Of a DNA stretch of 37,358 nucleotides, positions 1 to 37,308 are shown piece after piece (position 1 is the first letter of the stretch; the number at the start of each line of letters is the position of its first letter). The stretch is taken from UHGV virus genome UHGV-0063828; one strand, written 5' to 3'. Source of the DNA: a virus. The translations under genes were made by a program, and so were the position numbers. Under the pieces are notes generated by a model that ran no database searches, was not told the DNA's origin, and worked only from the letters and a program-made list of their open reading frames with translations.

Positions 1-49
1 ATAAAAAAGCCCCATCACAAGGACAGGGCTATAGAATCAATCACTTACA

Positions 50-1303: not shown

Positions 1304-1588
1304 ATGGCTACTTTTATTACCTATGCTGTCATCATTACTATTCTGGCTGTTATTTCTGCTTATAAACTCGGAACCGAAAATAGAGAACGTGCTGAATTAT
1401 TCTTAGGTGCGTTTGTTGCATTTGCTAGCCTTGCGTTAATTGTCGAAGGAATTTCTTATATTGTTGGCCTAGTTAGTATGACACTTTTTAACTTCCATCC
1501 AACTATTGCTATGCATTTGATGCTGACCGTACTTTGGGTATATTGCTTAATCGAATTTTTAACGTTTGTTTTCAAACAGACTAAATAA
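1304..1588 (+). CDS. Small integral membrane protein (94 aa, 3-4 predicted TM helices)
   Basis: AAGAGGA SD; strongly hydrophobic throughout; followed by tetraloop terminators. Confidence 0.5.
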   Translation: MATFITYAVIITILAVISAYKLGTENRERAELFLGAFVAFASLALIVEGISYIVGLVSMTLFNFHPTIAMHLMLTVLWVYCLIEFLTFVFKQTK

Positions 1589-15164: not shown

Positions 15165-18100
15165 ATGCAGTCGATCCAATTTAAACGAACAAATGTTTCT
15201 GGCAAAAAACCAACGCCGGAACAATTACAGGTCGGTGAGGTAGCAATCAACCTTAAAGACCATGTTATTTTTACCAAAGACCGAGATCATGAAGTAGTTC
15301 AAATCTCTGTTTCTCCTGAAACTCACGCGGCACTAGAATCTAAAGTTGATGCTAACAAACAAGAACTGGATAGCACAATTGCAGTAAATGACCGCAATAT
15401 TCACGCTAAAGTAGATGAAATTAAACAAACTACTGATGCAACCATCGCAGCAAATCACGCAGAAATTAACAATAAAGTTGATGTAATTAAACGCGAAACC
15501 GACGCGACAATCGAGGCCAATAAAAATAAAGCTGCTTCCGATCTTGCTGGTGTTAAAGCTGAATTGTCGGATACCATCAACGCTAATAAAAATGCGGCTG
15601 CTGTAGCAACTCAGGAACTGGACACCCGCATCAATAAAAAAGTTGATGATATTAAATCCCGTACCGATGCAACCATCGCAAGCAATGACAAAGCAATCAA
15701 TGACAAAGTTGATTTGATTAAGGCAGAAACTGACCGCACTATCGCAGCAAATAAAGTCTATGCGGAAAATCAGTTAACTGACACCTACAATAACCTTACT
15801 GGTGTGATTGCAGCCAATAAGCAAGAGGCAGCGGATAACGTCGCGGCATTAACCCGTGATGTTGAAGCCAAAAATACCGCAATTCATAGCAAAGTTGACA
15901 ATAACAAGTCTTACACTGATTCTGAATTGGCACGTTTAGAAAGCCGTATTGATGCAGCCGATGGATCGAGTGATGGCAAGTACATCAAAAAGCACGTAAA
16001 CACTTACACTGATGGCTATTTGCTATCTAAGACCGCAAACTATTTTGATGATCCGGGTGCGCGTAATCTTGATTATTTTGGTGCATTCCGCATGAATGAC
16101 CTGGCGGGTCATATTGCAATGATCTTGCATGTTCCGCATCCATCTGGTGTTAATCATGCTCGTGGCTTTGAGTTCACTTATGGGTCCAATCCACATGCTA
16201 CTGTAAGAACATACGGCTATGATGAATTGGGTCATTTGGCATATTCTCACCGCATGTATCATGAAGGCGATAAACCAACTCCGGCTGAAATTGGCGCATA
16301 TTCGAAAGCAGAAATTGACCGGATGTTCCAGAAGACCATCAACTTTGGTGTAGAAACTGGATGGTTTAAAATTGCTACCGCCTTTATTCCGCAAAATGAT
16401 GGACGTAGCTTGAAAATTAGATTGATTGGTGGAAATGGGTGGAACGTAGGCCAAACTGGACAATGTAATATTATTGAACTTGTTATAAGGACTAGCAACG
16501 GTTCGCCTAAAGGAATTAACTTTGTTGCGTATCATCATGTTTCTGGTTACGAGAATCAATTTTGTGCCATTAATACAAGTGATGACACTTATGATATCTA
16601 TGCATATTACTTCGAATTTACTAATATGGTAATGGCTGAATATCAAGCGTCTACCGGTGTTAATTTAACTGTACTTGATCGACCTGAATATGTAGGCGAA
16701 AAACCTGTAGCTGATCATATCTATGATGCATATACAATACACTCCTTTAACAGTTTCAGTAACCGTGGAACGTTAAATTTTGCTGGAAACCATCAAGGTC
16801 AATATGATATTGAGCATTTGAACGAACAACCGACAAATGCTAAGAAAATGCTGCGTCGCTTCCGTAGTTCTGCTCCTGCCACTATCTGGCACGAAAGTGT
16901 TGATGACCAAAATTATCGTCTTGCTACTGGATATAGCGATGTAAACCCACAATTATTGCTTTCTGCTGTAACCGGGTTACATGTCAAGAGATTAACGTTG
17001 GATGGTGGTGTCACTGGAAATTCTGGTATTGATATTCGTCGAGGACCAAACGAATCAAGCCATTTTAATTTTATGGATTATCGCACTGGTCAAGATGTTC
17101 GTAATGGCTGGTTTGGCTTCGGTGATGGTCAGACCAAAGATTTTATTTGGTGGAACGATAACGGTCAAAACTCGATAAACTTGATTGAAAACGGTGAATT
17201 GCATATTACTGGCGGTAAAGGCCAGAAAATTGTAATGAATAGCGAAGTTGCATTATCTGAAAATGCTCGTTTGGCTGTCAAAGGCGGTAACTATGGCTTA
17301 ATTTTTAGAAATGATGGATCTGACTTCCATATTCTCACCACAGGTCTCGGTGATTCCTTTGGACCGTGGAATACTCGTAGACCATTCAGCTATAATTTTG
17401 CGGATGGTGGATTGGATCTAGGTGGTACTGAAACCGCTCGTTGTTTGCACCTGGGAATTGATGGTAGCACTCGTCTCGAAGACAACCTTTTATTTAAATC
17501 TGGTTCTCGTCAATCTATGGACTATATGGAACTCGTCCATTGGGGTAACAGTAATACAGGACGCAACAACGTTTTGAGTATGCGGGATTCCAAAGGATTT
17601 TTAGCCGAATTTGAACGCACCGGAAACAATAGCATTAAAACTAGATTCTTTGGTGAAACCTTCACTGACGGTACATTATACCTAAATCAGATGAATAATA
17701 GCTCTGAACGATTCTCTATCAACAATTGGGGAAATTCAGAAGTTGGACGCGCGGCAGTAATGGAAATCGGTGATTCCAAAGGTTATCACTTCTATACGGA
17801 ACGTAGAACAGATAACAGTTTGGCGTTTGATGTTGCTGGCGCTTTTACTGTGCATGGACCTAACGGAATAACCATCAAAAACTCAGCGGGTGCACGCCAT
17901 ATCTGGTTTAGAGATGATAGCGATGCAGAAAAGGCTGTTATCTGGGCTACAGATGATGGTCTTTTACATATTCGCAATAACTACGGTGGACATTTTAGTC
18001 ATCACTTCCAGGGTGCAATGATTAAAGTGGGAGAGCGTGTTCCTTATGCCGCAGATCAAGGACTTATCCGTGGTGAGGTTTCTGGTGGTGCATATGTTGC

Positions 18101-18683
18101 ATGGAGAGACCGACCTGCTGGTTTGTTGGTTGACTGTCAACAAAGCGTTGATAGTGCTCATGCTATTTGGAAAGCGGTTGATTGGGGGCGTAACTACATC
18201 GCTGCTATGGACGTTCATTGTCCCGGTGATAGTAATAATACTGCGGCAGCGGTTCTTCATGTTCAGGGTGCTGATTATCAATTCCATGCAAGTGGAGAAT
18301 TTCATGCCACTGGTAACGGAAACTTTAACGATGTTTATATTCGTTCCGATCGTCGTCTGAAAATTAATGTTGAAGACTACGAAGAAAATGCGGTAGATAA
18401 GGTAAATAAACTCAAAGTTAAAACCTACGATAAAGTTAAATCACTTTCTGATCGCGAAGTCATCGCACATGAGATTGGTATTATCGCACAGGATTTACAA
18501 GAGGTATTACCGGAAGCTGTTAAAACCGCAAAAATTGGTGGTCTTGATAACCCAGAAGAAATTTTAACAATTTCAAACTCCGCAGTGAACGCGCTTTTAA
18601 TTAAAGCGGTCCAAGAAATGAGCGAAGAAAATAAACTTCTTCGTGAACGTCTTGCTGCTATTGAGGCTAAATTATTTGGTTAA
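15165..18683 (+). CDS. Side tail fibre with C-terminal intramolecular chaperone (peptidase S74-like) domain
   Basis: N-terminal periodic KVDxIKxxTDATIAxN repeats (4 copies); last ~112 aa SDRRLKINVEDYEENAVDK...LAAIEAKL resembles the self-cleaving chaperone of T5 L-shaped fibre and endosialidases. Confidence 0.85.
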   Translation: MQSIQFKRTNVSGKKPTPEQLQVGEVAINLKDHVIFTKDRDHEVVQISVSPETHAALESKVDANKQELDSTIAVNDRNIHAKVDEIKQTTDATIAANHAEINNKVDVIKRETDATIEANKNKAASDLAGVKAELSDTINANKNAAAVATQELDTRINKKVDDIKSRTDATIASNDKAINDKVDLIKAETDRTIAANKVYAENQLTDTYNNLTGVIAANKQEAADNVAALTRDVEAKNTAIHSKVDNNKSYTDSELARLESRIDAADGSSDGKYIKKHVNTYTDGYLLSKTANYFDDPGARNLDYFGAFRMNDLAGHIAMILHVPHPSGVNHARGFEFTYGSNPHATVRTYGYDELGHLAYSHRMYHEGDKPTPAEIGAYSKAEIDRMFQKTINFGVETGWFKIATAFIPQNDGRSLKIRLIGGNGWNVGQTGQCNIIELVIRTSNGSPKGINFVAYHHVSGYENQFCAINTSDDTYDIYAYYFEFTNMVMAEYQASTGVNLTVLDRPEYVGEKPVADHIYDAYTIHSFNSFSNRGTLNFAGNHQGQYDIEHLNEQPTNAKKMLRRFRSSAPATIWHESVDDQNYRLATGYSDVNPQLLLSAVTGLHVKRLTLDGGVTGNSGIDIRRGPNESSHFNFMDYRTGQDVRNGWFGFGDGQTKDFIWWNDNGQNSINLIENGELHITGGKGQKIVMNSEVALSENARLAVKGGNYGLIFRNDGSDFHILTTGLGDSFGPWNTRRPFSYNFADGGLDLGGTETARCLHLGIDGSTRLEDNLLFKSGSRQSMDYMELVHWGNSNTGRNNVLSMRDSKGFLAEFERTGNNSIKTRFFGETFTDGTLYLNQMNNSSERFSINNWGNSEVGRAAVMEIGDSKGYHFYTERRTDNSLAFDVAGAFTVHGPNGITIKNSAGARHIWFRDDSDAEKAVIWATDDGLLHIRNNYGGHFSHHFQGAMIKVGERVPYAADQGLIRGEVSGGAYVAWRDRPAGLLVDCQQSVDSAHAIWKAVDWGRNYIAAMDVHCPGDSNNTAAAVLHVQGADYQFHASGEFHATGNGNFNDVYIRSDRRLKINVEDYEENAVDKVNKLKVKTYDKVKSLSDREVIAHEIGIIAQDLQEVLPEAVKTAKIGGLDNPEEILTISNSAVNALLIKAVQEMSEENKLLRERLAAIEAKLFG

Positions 18684-30155: not shown

Positions 30156-30503
30156 ATGGCTAAAAATATTTTTACTGAATTTCCTACTTATCCGGTCGAT
30201 CAGCTTTCCGGTATTTTTATTAATGGCATTAGCCCAGAATCAATGACACATGATTTTGAGGCGAAGAGAGTTAAACATAAACAATATAAAGAATGTATCC
30301 GCGATCATGAAAAAGGGACCGTGTTTTGTGTCGCTACATTGGCTAAACGTCCTAAATATCGTTTTCGTGTAGGGCAAGAAGTCGATGTAGTTAATCCTTA
30401 TAGCTTTAACTGTCTGGGTGATGCACGCGCGGTGTGTGTAGGCACTGCTCCTTATTATATCAAGGGTATGCGCTTTATTGGTTATATCTTCGAAATGATC
30501 TAA
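30156..30503 (+). CDS. Hypothetical protein (115 aa)
   Basis: SD lies in the 3' arm of an upstream hairpin; no recognisable motifs. Confidence 0.5.
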   Translation: MAKNIFTEFPTYPVDQLSGIFINGISPESMTHDFEAKRVKHKQYKECIRDHEKGTVFCVATLAKRPKYRFRVGQEVDVVNPYSFNCLGDARAVCVGTAPYYIKGMRFIGYIFEMI

Positions 30504-30512
30504 GGGGGTAAT

Positions 30513-30866
30513 ATGTTAAGCAAACATTTTTCTCGCAAGGAATTTAAATGTAAATGCGGAAAATGTGATTATGATACAATCGACGCTGAATTACTGGTAA
30601 TTCTTGAGGATGTACGCGAACACTTCGGGAAACCAGTAATTATTAACAGTGGGAACCGTTGTCCGACTCATAACAAGAATGTAGGCGGTGCAACCAACAG
30701 CTATCACGTTCGAGGCCGTGCGGCTGACATTGTGATCAAGGGTGTCTCCCCTGATATTGTCCATGCTTATCTTGATGGGAAATATCCTACTCAATACGGC
30801 TTAGGCAAATATAAAACCTTTACGCATATCGATTCCAGATCGAAAAAATCACGATGGAATGGATAA
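30513..30866 (+). CDS. Peptidase M15-family protein, putative endolysin
   Basis: FSRKEFKCKCGKC...INSGNRCPTHNKNVGGATNSYHVRGRAADI matches the zinc peptidase M15 / YcbK-like signature as recalled; AAGGGGG SD; bidirectional terminator downstream. Confidence 0.6.
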   Translation: MLSKHFSRKEFKCKCGKCDYDTIDAELLVILEDVREHFGKPVIINSGNRCPTHNKNVGGATNSYHVRGRAADIVIKGVSPDIVHAYLDGKYPTQYGLGKYKTFTHIDSRSKKSRWNG

Positions 30867-30897: not shown

Positions 30898-32388
30898 TTA
30901 TATAGCAATTGTTTTAGTTGCATAGCTGAACTTGTCGGTTAGATAATAGCGGATTCTCTCAAGTGCATGTTTTACCGCATAATTTTTATGCTTGACTTTT
31001 CCGTTACGACCGAATATACACAAATGATCGATAAGATCCCAGACCGTTGCAATGTCTTTCGAACCATGTTTACGCAATGCACGACCGATACTCTGACGAA
31101 CGATAGTTGATTCCTTCACTGGATGACCGAAAATAACATGGTGCAAATTCTTAATTGAAACACCAGTAGAGAACACACCATAAGACGCAACACAAATGAT
31201 CCCGGTGTCACCCTCCGCCATTTTCTTAAATTCATCACGTTCTTCTGTCTTAACTCCACCGTCAATATAATAAACCTTGTCGTGTACCTTCTGTAACGCG
31301 TCATACATAAGTTTTCCGTGCTTAGTATTGCGGAACATCAGGAATACGTTTTCGCCCTTCTTAGCGAGTTTTAGCGCCAAATTACAAGCAAACTTATTTC
31401 GTCGTGGGTTAGATGTAATATACTTGATCTCTTCCGCATATTCTCTCCCCTTAACCGCGCTACATTCCTCATCGGTATAACGAAGGAAAAGACAGTTGAT
31501 TTTCAGTTTCGTCACTTGACCTTCTTCCATCAGGCGGTCAATACTCACGATCTTAGAAATATCACCGAAAAGCCCGACATACTGCATTAAATGGCACTTT
31601 GATTCTTTCGGGGAACCAGTCATACCGATCTTAAACTGGCAATGATTCATTCCGTTAATGATATTGGTAATATTTTTGGCACTAGCCTTATGCGATTCAT
31701 CAACTATCAACATTCCATATTGTCGGAACCATTCAGGAGGCATCTTGCAAGCTGATTGCCAGGTACTAACCGTGATTAACCTGTCTCCCGGATGTTTCCC
31801 GCTACCACTCATCATTGTATGGATTGCTTCATAAGGGAATAACCGATAATCGATGAAATCATCCCTCATTTGAACCACTAGCGATGTAGTCGGGACAATG
31901 ATTAACACCTTTCCGGTGTAATGCTCTAAGTACCAACGAGACAGCATACAAGCAATCAATGACTTTCCGGCACTGGTAGGAAGAACCAGCATTCTACGGC
32001 GATTGTGGATACCCTGAAAGACTGCTTCACGCTGATACCAGTAAGGATTGATTTTATTGGAACCGGAATACACTTCTAAAGAGTCAATCCACGAATCAAT
32101 CTGTTCTTTGGTTACATCTTCCTTCTCAAGTAATCGCGGGTCAATCCAGACTGAATAGCCCATATTTTTAACGAAGACACCCAATGTTTTTAATAGTCCA
32201 ATTGGTAGGGTATTTTCATGCGTAAACAGTCTTATTCGTCCATCCCAGCCGGAATACTTGTAGCGGGGGCTAAACCTAGCCCCTTCAACCTCAAACGAGA
32301 AATAATCTCTTAATTCCATTCCGATAGAAGGAGAGCAATCAACCTTAACGAAACTGTAATCTTGAAAATGAATTTTAATATCTTGCAT
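30898..32388 (-). CDS. SF2 helicase, T4 UvsW-like
   Basis: Walker A LPTSAGKS, DESH box, TGSP, QSIGRALR motifs; N-terminus MQDIKIHFQDYSFVKVDC resembles T4 UvsW as recalled; start placed at ATG 32388 with GGAGTGG SD (track start 32397 is GTG). Confidence 0.65.
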   Translation of the reverse strand: MQDIKIHFQDYSFVKVDCSPSIGMELRDYFSFEVEGARFSPRYKYSGWDGRIRLFTHENTLPIGLLKTLGVFVKNMGYSVWIDPRLLEKEDVTKEQIDSWIDSLEVYSGSNKINPYWYQREAVFQGIHNRRRMLVLPTSAGKSLIACMLSRWYLEHYTGKVLIIVPTTSLVVQMRDDFIDYRLFPYEAIHTMMSGSGKHPGDRLITVSTWQSACKMPPEWFRQYGMLIVDESHKASAKNITNIINGMNHCQFKIGMTGSPKESKCHLMQYVGLFGDISKIVSIDRLMEEGQVTKLKINCLFLRYTDEECSAVKGREYAEEIKYITSNPRRNKFACNLALKLAKKGENVFLMFRNTKHGKLMYDALQKVHDKVYYIDGGVKTEERDEFKKMAEGDTGIICVASYGVFSTGVSIKNLHHVIFGHPVKESTIVRQSIGRALRKHGSKDIATVWDLIDHLCIFGRNGKVKHKNYAVKHALERIRYYLTDKFSYATKTIAI

Positions 32389-32957
32389 TAGTTCCACTCC
32401 ACACTTGCAATATTCTTTATATTGTTTAGTGATTTATTGCAGTAGTGGAATGTTTCAGTTTTACCGTATTCAATCCCGCCTATACCCACATCCAGTAATC
32501 TCTTTATTGCTCTTTCAGTGGCTAAAGCATGTTTCATTGATGGCATTTCACCAGCAAAGACAATATCAAAGTTATGACCGGGATTGCGTACACCCAGATT
32601 AACACGTCGCTTGATGATTGACTTTGTAACACCAAATTTACCAATATCCCCTGATTTCATTACATAGAGATAAGGCACACCCGCTTTATATTGAAAGTAA
32701 TCACTTTTGAGACATGCACAGCGTTTACCTTCATTAAGCAGGTTGGTAGCTGATTTGTCGGCTCTATTGCCGCATCTGGTACATGTAAGAGCAATTCTTG
32801 AATGAAGCCCTTTAAACTCACCCAGAAAGCCATGAAAGACTAATGGTAAGTCCTTCTCTTTGATGTGAGTCAGAATGCGTTGTTCTAATGCCGATGGAGT
32901 TACAGCACGGGAGGATTTAGGAGTAAAAACAATATCTTTAGCCATTACTGGAATCAT
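32388..32957 (-). CDS. Zinc-ribbon plus T5orf172 (GIY-YIG-like) domain protein
   Basis: CTRCGN...CACLK cysteine pairs followed by YLYVMKSGDIGKFGVTK...ERAIKR...GKTETFHY; stop overlaps the helicase ATG (TAATG). Confidence 0.55.
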   Translation of the reverse strand: MIPVMAKDIVFTPKSSRAVTPSALEQRILTHIKEKDLPLVFHGFLGEFKGLHSRIALTCTRCGNRADKSATNLLNEGKRCACLKSDYFQYKAGVPYLYVMKSGDIGKFGVTKSIIKRRVNLGVRNPGHNFDIVFAGEMPSMKHALATERAIKRLLDVGIGGIEYGKTETFHYCNKSLNNIKNIASVEWN

Positions 32958-33110
32958 ATAGACCTCACTTTTTAACTTATAGGCATAACCTCAATATGGT
33001 TGGTTTGGGATTTAGGGTCGCGTATTATACACATCCAGATAGAGAATGCAATAGTAAGACAATTTTCTCTAATAAATAGTAGTGAGCTTATTATTTTAGA
33101 GGAAACTACT

Positions 33111-34286
33111 ATGAAACTTGCTTACGCTGCCGAAATTCCTTTTGTTAAGAAAACTCGCGGTTTATCGCCGGAAGAGTACCAACAACGAATCATCGCTAAA
33201 CTGGAACCTGCTTTCGTATTTGGTGGATTTATCCTACCGTGGAAGGGTAATCACACTTACTTTCGAATCTACAATTTAGATACACAAGAATATAAGGACT
33301 ACAAATTACGCAAACTGGAAGATACTAACGGGGGTGAGTTATTCCAGACTGAAAAGGCTGTATGGTTGAAAATGGAATCTCGTTGTAATGAGAAGGGAAA
33401 GAAATTCCTCGGATGGCAAGGAGAATGGAAAGGGCGAAATAGAACGAAAGCCCGTGTTTTGTGCCCTGAACACAATCAAATCATGACGCCATCTCTATTA
33501 CATGCTCTTAAAGATGATTTCGATTTTGATTGCAAAATCTGTATGGCTGAAAAATCCCAACGGGTAAGAAGTGGCAAGACTTTTGATGAAGTTATTAAGG
33601 ACAAAGAGACAATCATCAATGCACGTTGCGAGACTACACCTTACATCTTCAAAGGATTCATCATAAACACCCCACACCTAAAGGATGTTAAATTTAAAAC
33701 CTATTGCAAGACACATAACCACGAATGGGAATCTCATTTAAGATGTGCTGATTCTTTCACTTGTCCGCTTTGCATTAAAGACCAACTGGTGCAACTGTCT
33801 AACCGGACTTATCAGGGTAAGGCTAGTTTCTACATTCAATTATTAGATGACAAATTTATTAAATTTGGAATCACTACCCGGAAACCAGAAGAACGAATGA
33901 GAGAGCAAACCAGAAAGAGCAACTTCACTCACCGCTTAATCTTTACTCATGAGTTTGAGGATGGTTGGAAAGCCGTTGATTTAGAGCATGAAGTAAAACA
34001 ACGCTTCAAGACTCATGCAGCACCCTACAAAGATTTCAAGGATGGATGGTCGGAAACTCTGACTATTGATGAGTTACCACACTTACAGCAACTGGTTTAT
34101 GACTACCTAACCAATCAACCGGACGAGGCTAATATGTGGGTATCTCCGAAAGATGTATTTGATGACGATACATTCAAGCTACATACTCACTTCTACGGCA
34201 TCAATAAACCGGAATTTTTCTGTATTGATGACGACAGTCCTGATTTAATGGATGAATACTTTAATACTCTCTTAGAGGCTCTCTAA
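33111..34286 (+). CDS. Zinc-finger plus T5orf172 (GIY-YIG-like) domain protein
   Basis: Start placed at ATG 33111 with AGAGGA SD; Cys/His clusters (CPEHN...CKIC; CKTHNH...CPLC) then FYIQLLDDKFIKFGITTRKPEERMRE...GWSETL. Confidence 0.55.
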   Translation: MKLAYAAEIPFVKKTRGLSPEEYQQRIIAKLEPAFVFGGFILPWKGNHTYFRIYNLDTQEYKDYKLRKLEDTNGGELFQTEKAVWLKMESRCNEKGKKFLGWQGEWKGRNRTKARVLCPEHNQIMTPSLLHALKDDFDFDCKICMAEKSQRVRSGKTFDEVIKDKETIINARCETTPYIFKGFIINTPHLKDVKFKTYCKTHNHEWESHLRCADSFTCPLCIKDQLVQLSNRTYQGKASFYIQLLDDKFIKFGITTRKPEERMREQTRKSNFTHRLIFTHEFEDGWKAVDLEHEVKQRFKTHAAPYKDFKDGWSETLTIDELPHLQQLVYDYLTNQPDEANMWVSPKDVFDDDTFKLHTHFYGINKPEFFCIDDDSPDLMDEYFNTLLEAL

Positions 34287-36051: not shown

Positions 36052-36088
36052 CAAAAACGCCCCTACCGTGTATTATAACGATAGGGGC
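36052..36088 (-). terminator. Minus-strand terminator between secreted-protein gene and integrase start; loop contains TATAAT
   Basis: On minus strand GCCCCTA...TAGGGGC stem followed by GTTTTTGTTT; candidate integrase promoter overlaps. Confidence 0.45.
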
Positions 36089-36104
36089 ATTGGTTAGTAA
36101 GTCA

Positions 36105-36350
36105 TTAATATTTCTTTCCAGTTAGTTTTGCATCACGTTTATTAATATCCTCGATATGACTCCATACACACGCAGTAATAAAGTCGTCATCGTCACCAAC
36201 TCCGGCAATCTGTGCTAATTCAGTACACAGTTGATTTAAAGAAGGTGCAACGGCAGCACGCTTGACACTATCACCCTGTACATATTGATCCGCATTAGCA
36301 GCACCCACCAAACCCAGAGCAAGAACAACACCAGCGATAATCTTTTTCAT
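36105..36350 (-). CDS. Small secreted protein (81 aa) with signal peptide
   Basis: AAGAGGAAA SD; N-terminal MKKIIAGVVLALGLVGAANA signal-like sequence; DDDD motif and two Cys in mature part. Confidence 0.55.
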   Translation of the reverse strand: MKKIIAGVVLALGLVGAANADQYVQGDSVKRAAVAPSLNQLCTELAQIAGVGDDDDFITACVWSHIEDINKRDAKLTGKKY

Positions 36351-36395
36351 AGTAGAATTTCCTCTTGTTATTTGAATTACGATATATTTATATCG

Positions 36396-36521
36396 TTAAA
36401 AATTGATGCTAATTACCAGACCAAACACAACCGCACCAATCAAATCAATCCAGTTAATACACAATCCGCTATATTCTTTCTTGAATGTCTTAGATGAAAT
36501 GCCATCATGAAATTGTTTCAT
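36396..36521 (-). CDS. Small membrane peptide (41 aa)
   Basis: Manual translation MKQFHDGISSKTFKKEYSGLCINWIDLIGAVVFGLVISINF; GGGG-rich SD overlapping upstream peptide stop; C-terminal TM helix. Confidence 0.35.
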   Translation of the reverse strand: MKQFHDGISSKTFKKEYSGLCINWIDLIGAVVFGLVISINF

Positions 36522-36524
36522 TGC

Positions 36525-36605
36525 TCACCCCATACTAACGACAATATAAGAAAGGCTGATCATAGTTGTGAGACTACCTCCCACGAATGAGATAAAAGCT
36601 AACAT
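36525..36605 (-). CDS. Small hydrophobic peptide (26 aa)
   Basis: Manual translation MLAFISFVGGSLTTMISLSYIVVSMG; GGAGAA SD 6 nt before ATG; directly after a hairpin terminator. Confidence 0.3.
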   Translation of the reverse strand: MLAFISFVGGSLTTMISLSYIVVSMG

Positions 36606-36620
36606 GTTTGATTCTCCATT

Positions 36621-36647
36621 TAAAAAGCGGTGGGAATTGCACCCACC
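36621..36647 (-). terminator. Minus-strand terminator/attenuator hairpin preceding the small-peptide ORFs
   Basis: On minus strand GGTGGGTGCAATTCCCACC followed by GCTTTTTAAA, then the SD of the 26 aa ORF. Confidence 0.5.
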
Positions 36648-36657
36648 AAATTAGAAA

Positions 36658-36927
36658 TTACTTCTTGCTAATAAACTCTTTGTAGATAAAATCTAAGACT
36701 TCCTTTAACTTCTTATCGGTGTCAATCATCACCGGAAGTTCTTCTTTAATATCGCGAGGAAGATACACATTACCTTTCCAGAACAAGCAACCACATTGAG
36801 CAATCGAATAGCTGAACATCCATTCACAATCTTGTTCTATCTCCCAGAATCTAACCTGCTCATCTTCGAGTTGAAGTTCGATTCCACGGCGGCGAGCATA
36901 GTTATGGATTGCTTTGGTAATGTTCAT
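36658..36927 (-). CDS. Hypothetical protein (89 aa) abutting attR
   Basis: GAGAGGATA SD; start lies ~30 bp from the host junction, so its promoter must lie in host DNA in the integrated state. Confidence 0.5.
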
Positions 36928-36939
36928 CGTTGTATCCTC

Positions 36940-36975
36940 TCGTGTTATTGTGGGTACATGATATTAGGGAATCCC
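36940..36975. other. Approximate prophage-host junction (attR) inside ycdX
   Basis: Phage gene SD at 36928-36936; YcdX-like coding sequence recognisable from ~36966 (GGGAATCCCAAATATGAAAT); exact crossover cannot be set without the uninterrupted host allele. Confidence 0.55.
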
Positions 36976-37308
36976 AAATATGAAATAGATGTGAAAGCCG
37001 TTGCTGAAGCAGCCGCGAAACATCAGGTGGCGCTGGAAATCAATAATTCTTCATTTTTACACTCACGTAAGGGCAGTGAAGACAACTGTCGTGCGGTAGC
37101 CGCAGCGGTACGTGATGCTGGAGGTTGGGTGGCATTAGGCTCGGATTCTCACACCGCGTTTACCATGGGGGAATTTGAAGAGTGTCTTAAAATCCTCGAC
37201 GCGGTAGATTTTCCGCCAGAGCGCATTTTGAATGTTTCGCCGCGCCGCTTACTGAACTTCCTTGAATCTCGCGGTATGGCACCGATTGCGGAATTTGCAG
37301 ACCTTTAA
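36961..37308 (+). pseudogene. ycdX: 3' remnant of host PHP-family phosphoesterase gene ycdX, truncated by prophage insertion
   Basis: Translation [32 protein letters not shown]...PIAEFADL matches the YcdX C-terminus as recalled; the upstream part of the track ORF (36796-36960) is phage-derived read-in. Confidence 0.7.

Follow-up and report, generated by a model that had tools for sequence, protein, structure and literature searches.

Here we examine the right-hand end of UHGV-0063828, a viral genome of 37,358 nt (the window, by which we mean this whole stretch of DNA) that represents approximately one whole ~37-kb prophage inserted in the Escherichia coli gene ycdX. Between the gene for the large serine recombinase, hereafter the integrase, and the right attachment site, attR, lies a minus-strand accessory operon. 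In it two very small open reading frames (ORFs), ORF1 of 26 amino acids (aa) and ORF2 of 41 aa, stand between a gene for an 89-aa protein and a gene for an 81-aa exported protein. The features of this region, from the host junction to the integrase and with Shine-Dalgarno (SD) sites where present, are as follows.

36970-37308, plus strand: 3' part of ycdX, the host gene interrupted by the prophage (tblastn of YcdX residues 110-245)
36942-36971, attR, no strand assigned: phage P arm at 36942-36969 (GTGTTATTGTGGGTACATGATATTAGGG), crossover AA at 36970-36971, host ycdX sequence next
36958-36963, minus strand: -10-like hexamer TATCAT in the phage arm of attR, ~30 nt upstream of the start codon of the 89-aa gene
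36658-36927, minus strand: 89-aa gene, SD GAGAGGA
36618-36648, minus strand: intrinsic-terminator-like hairpin and T-run (7 pairs, 5 of them G-C; TGGTGGG-TGCAATT-CCCACCG followed by CTTTTTAAAT)
36525-36605, minus strand: ORF1, 26 aa (MLAFISFVGGSLTTMISLSYIVVSMG), with GGAG 8 nt upstream
36396-36521, minus strand: ORF2, 41 aa, starting 3 nt past the ORF1 stop
36378-36396, minus strand: AT-rich palindrome or hairpin ACGATATAAATATATCGT, directly after the ORF2 stop and containing TATAAAT
36105-36350, minus strand: 81-aa exported cargo gene, SD AAGAGGA, signal peptide MKKIIAGVVLALGLVGAANA cleaved before DQ
36056-36091, minus strand: strong intrinsic terminator of 14 pairs at the end of the accessory operon, with TATAAT in its loop
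34360-36039, minus strand: large serine recombinase (integrase; Pfam Recombinase and Zn_ribbon_recom, phrog_95)

The initial annotation of this DNA had described four ORFs, the two smallest with SD sites, a signal peptide, two terminators and a position between integrase and attR, all on the minus strand, and this layout is borne out. SD sites are present at all four small genes, and the region holds three terminator-like sites where shuffled sequences give an expectation of 0.8.

Chance ORFs as short as ORF1 and ORF2 arise in any sequence, and it is therefore conservation that shows the two to be real. The ~310 nt between the 89-aa and 81-aa genes occur in 58 of 5426 complete E. coli genomes and are 95-99% identical in 52 of those 58. 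In the ten E. coli records that we inspected, PGAP annotates ORF1 in none and ORF2 in two, leaving the interval mostly unannotated. This, together with the two hairpins that the region contains, is what could be said for the view that the ORFs are accidents of a conserved non-coding regulatory or RNA region. Divergent copies were found in E. coli (loci L004-L006), in Logan assemblies (L012-L016 and L053-L056), on 26 IMG/VR contigs and on 8 metagenome contigs. With just 79% identity to E. coli, the host flanks of L012-L016, L055 and L056 indicate another enterobacterial genus; integrase identity to the window copy is 71-77% across the Logan loci. Both frames are kept in the divergent copies, the other genus included; the initial annotation had staked its reading on such conservation in related prophages, and it holds at the protein level. 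Across ~50 related loci we counted 16 distinct ORF1 and 28 distinct ORF2 nucleotide alleles, which are open save for one frameshifted ORF1 (L022) and one copy cut by a contig end; the further irregularities are one Y-to-C change and one natural read-through fusion (P0004).

The pattern of substitution is that of proteins. With synonymous divergence (dS) near saturation, the ratio of nonsynonymous to synonymous divergence (dN/dS; Nei-Gojobori) is 0.14-0.31 for ORF2 and 0.14-0.6 for ORF1. ORF1 remains 25-27 aa long in all lineages despite near-saturated DNA divergence and keeps the family motif L(I/L)SF...T.(I/L)S..Y.VV; its start is GTG with its own GGAG in L055 and L056, and the variants in L005 and L006 are without an obvious SD. 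ORF2 is 39-41 aa long and begins M[KR]QFH[DEQN]GISSKT[FY], with the invariant N-terminal peptide MKQFHDGISSKTFKK. In the closer set its first 15 residues are identical despite 5-6 synonymous differences, and its transmembrane part drifts. Two of its Ser codons change from TCA TCT to TCT AGC in relatives with the amino acids unchanged, and an indel at codon 19 is of 3 nt and in frame. Frames that survive saturated synonymous change, codon-family switches and in-frame indels are not expected of a non-coding region; nor does the region match Rfam as a non-coding RNA, or fold as RNA better than its shuffles. We consider the chance-ORF reading effectively refuted and, on this comparative evidence, ORF1 and ORF2 to be genuine protein-coding genes under purifying selection.

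The arrangement of the genes leads to the same conclusion. TAATG and ATGA overlaps connect three consecutive genes in L012, namely the upstream gene, ORF1 and ORF2. L013-L016 and L053-L056 have one or two further genes inserted between the two small ORFs, flanked on either side by ATGA overlaps. Such start/stop overlaps are the signature of a translationally coupled operon, which rules out the chance-ORF and RNA-only readings; from these junctions, ORF1 and ORF2 are coupled translationally to each other and to any gene between or adjoining them. The same overlaps could suggest that the small ORFs are only couplers or leaders that load ribosomes for the cargo genes, which are inserted exactly at the junctions, and that the peptides themselves have no function. 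We consider this highly improbable. A pure coupler would conserve its frame and let its residues drift, yet here the amino-acid sequence itself is conserved, with the N-terminal motif of ORF2 invariant over its synonymous changes and ORF1 keeping SF...T..S..Y.VV.

The initial annotation had treated the two peptides as cargo of the prophage end. The comparison reverses this assignment, since it is the surrounding genes that vary. Every relative found carries ORF1 and ORF2, with the pair immediately upstream of the integrase in each case; the flanking genes differ and two att sites are used, and by this distribution ORF1 and ORF2 are core genes of one phage lineage, not cargo; the variable presence typical of a moron is not seen for them. 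The ORF2 family is small, comprising ~10 clusters in 5.8 billion proteins and again ~10 in a profile search of 1.84 billion representatives, and every member that can be placed sits in this prophage context. The 26 viral contigs that bear ORF2 all recur among the 27 loci found with the integrase (in addition to one further truncated contig, L086). Two degenerate-pattern scans of species-representative genomes found no ORF2, and an integrase-alignment search of viral contigs for more distant integrase relatives returned the same close set only. The locus is thus best described, from its gene content and context, as an integrase-proximal accessory operon that accompanies the serine integrase in a single lineage of enterobacterial prophages.

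Several natural variants of the core pair are on record. In the 68-aa P0004, from an ENA contig, ORF1 reads through into ORF2 (...SMGWAMKQF...), which implies that one side of the membrane can accommodate both the ORF1 C-terminus and the ORF2 N-terminus. The frameshifted ORF1 of L022 (988-1077) still encodes a hydrophobic peptide, of 29 aa, and overlaps ORF2 by ATGA. Natural knock-outs also occur: IS911 (L006 3198-4366) splits the locus between ORF2 and the integrase, and IS1 (L011 3115-3812) removes all past the first ~58 nt of the module. One E. coli variant carries a third hydrophobic micro-ORF of 27 aa (MKQVIACASVLLVTVYCSAGLVWVIAH; L004 3313-3396), behind a duplicated cargo ribosome-binding site and ahead of an 82-aa cargo gene.

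The composition of the two peptides points to the inner membrane. ORF1 has no charged residue and a grand average of hydropathy of 1.64 in the window copy (1.6-2.5 overall); by hydropathy it is essentially one hydrophobic helix with a polar Ser/Thr/Tyr stripe, and it probably amounts to no more than a transmembrane helix that bears a Ser/Thr/Tyr face. In ORF2, ~20 Lys-rich N-terminal residues precede a hydrophobic stretch (residues 21-39), and the protein ends in the motif GL.(I/L)SIN(F/I). By the positive-inside rule it is probably a tail-anchored, N-in inner-membrane protein, and as such would probably display an invariant, Lys-rich peptide of ~17 residues to the cytoplasm. Judging from these properties, ORF1 and ORF2 likely associate in the membrane. 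Searches of Pfam, NCBIfam, PHROGs and PADLOC gave no match for ORF1, ORF2 or the 81-aa protein, and PDB sequences likewise yielded none for the ORF2 family. SgrT, which shares an MRQF start with ORF2, was considered as a relative and rejected (hhalign probability 2.3%). The two peptides do not resemble holins or antiholins, being without a family match and shorter than the 60 aa or more expected of these, and the endolysin cassette of the prophage lies on the other strand at 30156-30866, ~6 kb away. The ORF1 and ORF2 families add two small-protein families that had gone unrecognised, with comparative evidence of translation that is unusually clean, and we suggest that 300-nt 'intergenic' gaps beside prophage integrases merit screening for coupled micro-ORFs.

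Very short hydrophobic peptides, sometimes encoded in prophages, are also the hallmark of type I toxins such as Ibs, ShoB, Ldr, TisB, Hok, DinQ and ZorO, and the initial annotation had raised toxin-immunity as one function of the cluster. By this account ORF1, alone or with ORF2, would be a membrane-damaging killer peptide that serves abortive infection or stabilises the prophage. At 26 and 41 aa, both peptides fall within the size range of such toxins (<60 aa, hydrophobic). The 25-27 residues of ORF1 are almost charge-free, and Ibs and ShoB are similar to it in size and composition. A hairpin lies just upstream of the ORF1 SD, and the L005 and L006 variants lack an obvious SD. However, neither peptide matches a Pfam or NCBIfam toxin family at E <= 1, or any PHROG or PADLOC entry. 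A consensus scan, which weak promoters can escape, found no plus-strand promoter-like site facing ORF1 or ORF2, no Rfam family matches, and no antisense RNA gene was detected. In place of the stand-alone mRNA of a type I toxin, the ATGA and TAATG overlaps with upstream, inserted and downstream genes place the pair in a translationally coupled operon with ordinary genes. The pair is, moreover, intact in essentially all copies, without the decay expected of a costly toxin. We consider a toxin role unlikely on these grounds.

In contrast to the core pair, the genes around it vary. We catalogued the gene that follows ORF2 at 49 distinct loci. It encodes an 81-82-aa protein at 14 loci and, at another 14, a periplasmic protein of 132-139 aa whose members end in CREIL save for the 134-aa relative in L056. 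A 113-aa N-terminally anchored protein is found at 5 loci, a 130-aa lipoprotein at 2, a 75-aa periplasmic protein with two Cys at 1, and a 348-aa CapR/T5orf172-like protein at 2; the integrase follows directly at 8. In the relatives outside E. coli, the ORF1-ORF2 interval holds a 62-aa cytosolic protein and/or a 75-77-aa protein with a signal peptide and two Cys, and further upstream of ORF1 lie genes for a lipoprotein and for OmpW-like beta-barrels (245-314 aa). Most of this cargo is envelope-targeted. PADLOC finds no recognisable defence system in it, and family searches of the other cargo proteins gave as sole matches the CapR/T5orf172 hits of the 348-aa gene. Taken together, the gene orders indicate that ORF1 and ORF2 frame exchangeable, mostly envelope-directed cargo slots, located between them or after ORF2.

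The 81-aa protein has a signal peptide of n-h-c structure, read from the sequence, in codons 1-20 (36350-36291): MKK, then IIAGVVLALGLVGAA, then ANA with an AxA motif and cleavage before DQ. The 81-aa and 139-aa (137-139-aa) genes have the ribosome-binding site and the whole signal-peptide coding sequence in common; their similarity stops at the cleavage site after ANA and resumes at the integrase-proximal terminator. From this alignment, only the mature domain has been exchanged between the two. One ribosome-binding site and signal peptide thus serve several cargo alleles. That the exported protein is replaced by genes of 75, 113, 130, 132-139 or 348 aa, or by nothing, and shares its signal peptide with unrelated mature domains, agrees with its earlier description as prophage cargo and with the variability of a moron. 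The 81-aa family comprises 15 clusters, all named ones from E. coli, and has no family assignment. The structure predicted by AlphaFold 2 for its mature 61-aa part (predicted local distance difference test score 74-91) is a helical hairpin with Cys42 and Cys61, and a fold search with this model gave no significant PDB match; the fold is that of a generic helical hairpin.

Other observations concern the genes that come and go around the pair. The 348-aa CapR-like protein in the cargo slot of L010 and L026 is a paralogue of the 428-aa protein beyond the integrase. The OmpW/OMP-beta-barrel genes of L055 (4604-5353) and L056 (4686-5630) each have their own terminator, followed by a promoter-like element before ORF1. 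A family of small genes, absent from the window, lies directly upstream of ORF1 in many relatives (L002 4664-5050, L007 2562-2999, L012 4682-4924 and L014 4155-4400, among others); its products of 80-145 aa share ...KGFRKLKL..Y.(I/V)GKQ....KGLLDT.TI... and have no Pfam match, and some are called 'beta/alpha barrel domain-containing' by PGAP.

What might an invariant membrane pair do in this setting? The position beside int and att is a common place for the exclusion and conversion genes of temperate phages, and single-pass microproteins typically act by binding larger membrane proteins. Because of this position, of the envelope cargo on the same transcript and of that typical mode of action, we tentatively propose, by analogy, that ORF1 and ORF2 provide exclusion or envelope protection at the inner membrane. 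In our model the two peptides would insert in the inner membrane and work together, and the invariant cytoplasmic peptide of ORF2 (MKQFHDGISSKTFKKEY) would contact a conserved partner. The pair would act on a conserved membrane-associated target, most plausibly to block DNA entry of incoming related phages or in some other way to protect the envelope of the lysogen or the infected cell, and this action would be the constant function of the lineage. The swappable exported cargo, riding the same transcript, would add allele-specific envelope functions. Transcription would probably start at the att site, and the free phage may express the operon more strongly than the prophage does. The localisation required by such a model is consistent with hydropathy, which places hydrophobic segments in ORF1 and ORF2, and with the Sec signal peptide of the 81-aa protein. 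Taken as a whole, the reading of a coupled core microprotein pair that frames cargo and acts in inner-membrane exclusion or envelope protection is, in our judgement, on balance probable, although the function taken by itself is possible rather than probable.

Exclusion proteins encoded by int and att or as morons include HK97 gp15, lactococcal Sie2009, Ltp of the Streptococcus thermophilus phage, Cor of phi80 and N15, and Llp of T5. Like these, the products of our locus are small membrane or exported proteins beside an integrase and att, with variable neighbouring genes; ORF1 and ORF2 differ in being far smaller (26 and 41 aa), in forming an invariant core and in having no sequence or profile similarity to them. 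In size the closer parallel is with bacterial single-pass modulators of membrane proteins, namely AcrZ, MgrB, MgtS, KdpF and CydX, which likewise have 25-50 aa, one transmembrane helix and SD-dependent translation and are missed by annotation pipelines. ORF1 and ORF2 differ from them in being phage-borne, in forming a coupled pair and in having no homology to them. As a hotspot, the locus recalls those of P2 and P4, reportedly described by Rousset and colleagues in 2022, and the moron concept, which is said to go back to Juhala and colleagues in 2000, in that near-identical phages exchange unrelated genes at a slot between conserved anchors. Here, however, the anchors are microprotein genes, the cargo is spliced in by start/stop overlaps or by a shared signal peptide, and that cargo is mostly directed to the envelope and PADLOC-negative. 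Features of the general kinds seen here, namely small membrane proteins of phages, hotspots for morons or cargo, and junction promoters, are already known; what is new is the ORF1 and ORF2 families, their part as the constant and translationally coupled frame around a hotspot whose cargo reuses a signal peptide, and their strict linkage to a serine integrase. Microprotein genes can, on this evidence, form the constant 'frame' of a prophage cargo hotspot, and the ~300 nt with two peptides and natural allele swaps make up a compact system for experiments.

A number of results weigh against our proposal. Searches of Pfam, NCBIfam, PHROG and PADLOC, and of PDB sequences for ORF2, found no similarity between the proteins of the locus and known exclusion proteins. 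Cargo type is also not linked to the phage's own adhesins. The ratio of 81-aa to 139-aa cargo is 11:7 in phages with the tail-tip C-terminus of the window and 10:6 in those with the ~77% allele, and the cargo alleles are likewise unlinked to the allele of the T-even-like side fibre. Masking of the Cor or Llp type, matched to the phage's own receptor-binding proteins, is therefore unsupported. In addition, our promoter scan of the window gives no sigma-70-like site from attR to ORF1, and the latter lies behind a terminator, so that ORF1 and ORF2 must be reached by read-through here and their expression in the lysogen could be low. Finally, the 89-aa protein at the head of the operon has relatives in lytic phages, which fits an early-infection role of the operon at least as well as a lysogenic one.

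The hairpin ahead of ORF1 bears directly on the question of read-through. The initial annotation had suggested that it could act as an attenuator. It begins 9 nt past the stop codon of the 89-aa gene, is followed by CTTTTT and ends ~8 nt before the ORF1 SD, and it is best read from this placement as the terminator of the 89-aa gene. In every E. coli variant the conserved block starts at the upstream stop codon. The L005 and L006 copies have lost the T-run, although a compensatory or wobble change preserves their stem; L012-L014 and L053 have no hairpin, since ORF1 there overlaps the preceding gene or directly follows it. Structure prediction for the region (z = -1.58) yields the terminator hairpin and no evident competitor, which leaves an attenuator role unsupported. 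We also considered, and rejected, a promoter in the interval from hairpin to ORF1, for which there is neither room nor a match. A promoter-like TTGCAA-17-TATTAT/TAATAT, with an AT-rich tract before it, lies upstream of ORF1 in L055 and L056.

The palindrome after ORF2 is present wherever a cargo gene follows, and in L012 it is kept by a double change (GCGTTATAAATATAACG); its predicted fold energy is no better than that of shuffles. A frequent C-to-T variant turns it into TGATATAAAT, which resembles an extended -10 site and would form a G-U pair in RNA. Of the promoter and terminator of its own that a moron would carry, the terminator is found and the promoter scan gives none in the window, with TGATATAAAT following ORF2 in some alleles. 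The integrase-proximal terminator is kept in relatives with compensatory stem changes. In most relatives its loop holds a perfect TATAAT (window 36056-36091; L013, L014 and L053), and the -10 of the integrase promoter may be embedded in this terminator of the preceding operon.

Where, then, would transcription begin? The start of the first gene of the operon is only ~45 nt away from the crossover, as is that of the entire operon in L012. On the operon strand of the circular attP there is TTGACT-17 nt-TATCAT, a 10/12 sigma-70 match pointing into the 89-aa gene, in which the -35 comes from the left end of the prophage (arm in L017 ~2975-2985) and the -10 from the right end. The same 10/12 match occurs in phages of both the ycdX and hicB types. 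In attR, host DNA replaces the -35 and the best pairing with TATCAT is 8/12. A score of 10/12 is reached by 65 of 5000 shuffles, and the candidate is a consensus match whose hexamers lie in the integrase-binding arms, so that their conservation proves nothing. We regard it as possible, rather than probable, that a promoter spanning attP is taken apart by integration. Junction promoters are known from the IS911, IS30 and Tn916 circles, and integration-dependent phage regulation from the immunity of mycobacteriophage BPs and from lambda sib. The likeness is that -35 and -10 lie on opposite sides of a recombination site, so that integration would dismantle the promoter; the attP case overlaps integrase-binding arms. 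It offers a candidate for a promoter split by serine-integrase integration. Read-through across attP from the 101-aa gene at the left end is unlikely, as that gene has its own terminator at 30..8.

A split promoter of this kind invites a different account of the pair, namely that it controls the lysogeny or integration decision. The ORF2 peptide would hold a conserved partner at the membrane or inhibit it there, with FtsH (which lambda CIII inhibits), the integrase and its directionality factor as candidates, and the att-split promoter would limit expression to the unintegrated phage. This would be consistent with the strict linkage of ORF2 to the integrase, always directly upstream of it, and with an invariant N-terminus above a drifting transmembrane part. 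It would also accord with the loss in attR, for both att types, of the 10/12 match, and with the L012 operon, which starts so close to att that its promoter must overlap the site. The partners, however, are candidates only. The operon ends in a strong terminator ahead of the integrase gene, envelope cargo on the operon fits expression in the lysogen better, and conservation of the hexamers is inseparable from that of the integrase-binding arms. We therefore judge this account unlikely. Its more specific form, in which the microprotein pair senses or controls the integration state, the promoter exists only on the circular phage and the ORF2 peptide captures a lysogeny or recombination-direction factor, is very unlikely; if true, such coupling of expression to integration via membrane microproteins would be a novelty among serine-integrase phages.

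The 89-aa protein belongs to phrog_6147, has relatives in E. coli and Salmonella and carries no export signal. Its fold is alpha-beta4-alpha, similar to RWD/UBC, with structural relatives in the lytic phages egaa, RaK2 and IME_EC2, and it looks like a cytoplasmic protein-binding module. As an RWD-like cytoplasmic protein with lytic-phage relatives, it does not fit the lysogenic-conversion type to which the initial annotation had assigned the cluster. On the opposite strand, the 170-aa ORF at window positions 36796-37308 (+) was rejected as a gene, being a chimera of the ycdX 3' fragment and the antisense of the 89-aa gene; its counterpart is flagged as a pseudogene by PGAP in relatives.

The attachment sites were reconstructed by comparing attB in K-12 ycdX with attL of strain CUVET21-37 and attR of the window. 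The three sequences give a 2-bp crossover, AA, and an attP with imperfect inverted-repeat arms, GTGTTATTG.GGGT.... With its recombinase and zinc-ribbon domains, short attP with inverted arms and 2-bp crossover, the element has the features of a large-serine-recombinase prophage; PGAP labels its integrase 'recombinase family protein' and marks ycdX as a pseudogene in relatives. Other prophages, sisters to this one, have hicB as their insertion site and an attP that is nearly the same. The sister integrases thus use two attB sites, CCCGGA[AA]TCCCAAA in ycdX and TTGGCAAACCTAAA in hicB, and their attP sequences are nearly identical, with differences confined to the positions beside the core, TTAGGGAACCCGAAC vs TTTGGCAACCCGAAT (window 36942-36971; L017 2930-2990; L057 9190-9240). 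This pair of integrases is a natural system for the study of target specificity in large serine recombinases. A literature search on ycdX, hicB, prophages, serine recombinases and small membrane proteins with exclusion returned nothing on this element.

Beyond the integrase lies a variable accessory block (window 30898-34286), which in relatives holds other combinations of genes. Here it encodes a DEAD/DEAH helicase whose PADLOC matches, PbeA and type IV restriction-like, are weak (30898-32397), a 189-aa ORF and the 428-aa protein with CapR and GIY-YIG/T5orf172-like similarity (33000-34286). Near the left end of the prophage, a 94-aa ORF (window 1304-1588) encodes an apparent multi-pass membrane protein (MATFITYAVIITILAVISAYKLGT...). 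The 1-kb locus has no match in the isolated-phage collection, and the sole prophage gene that matches isolated phages is a tail-fibre gene, which matches T-even phages. This 1172-aa gene (window 15165-18683) is 84-92% identical in DNA to the distal subunit of the T-even long tail fibre (gp37-like) in phages such as vB_EcoM_G37-3, KFS-EC and phiS, and looks like the product of a recent exchange between a temperate phage with a lambda-like tail and virulent myophages.

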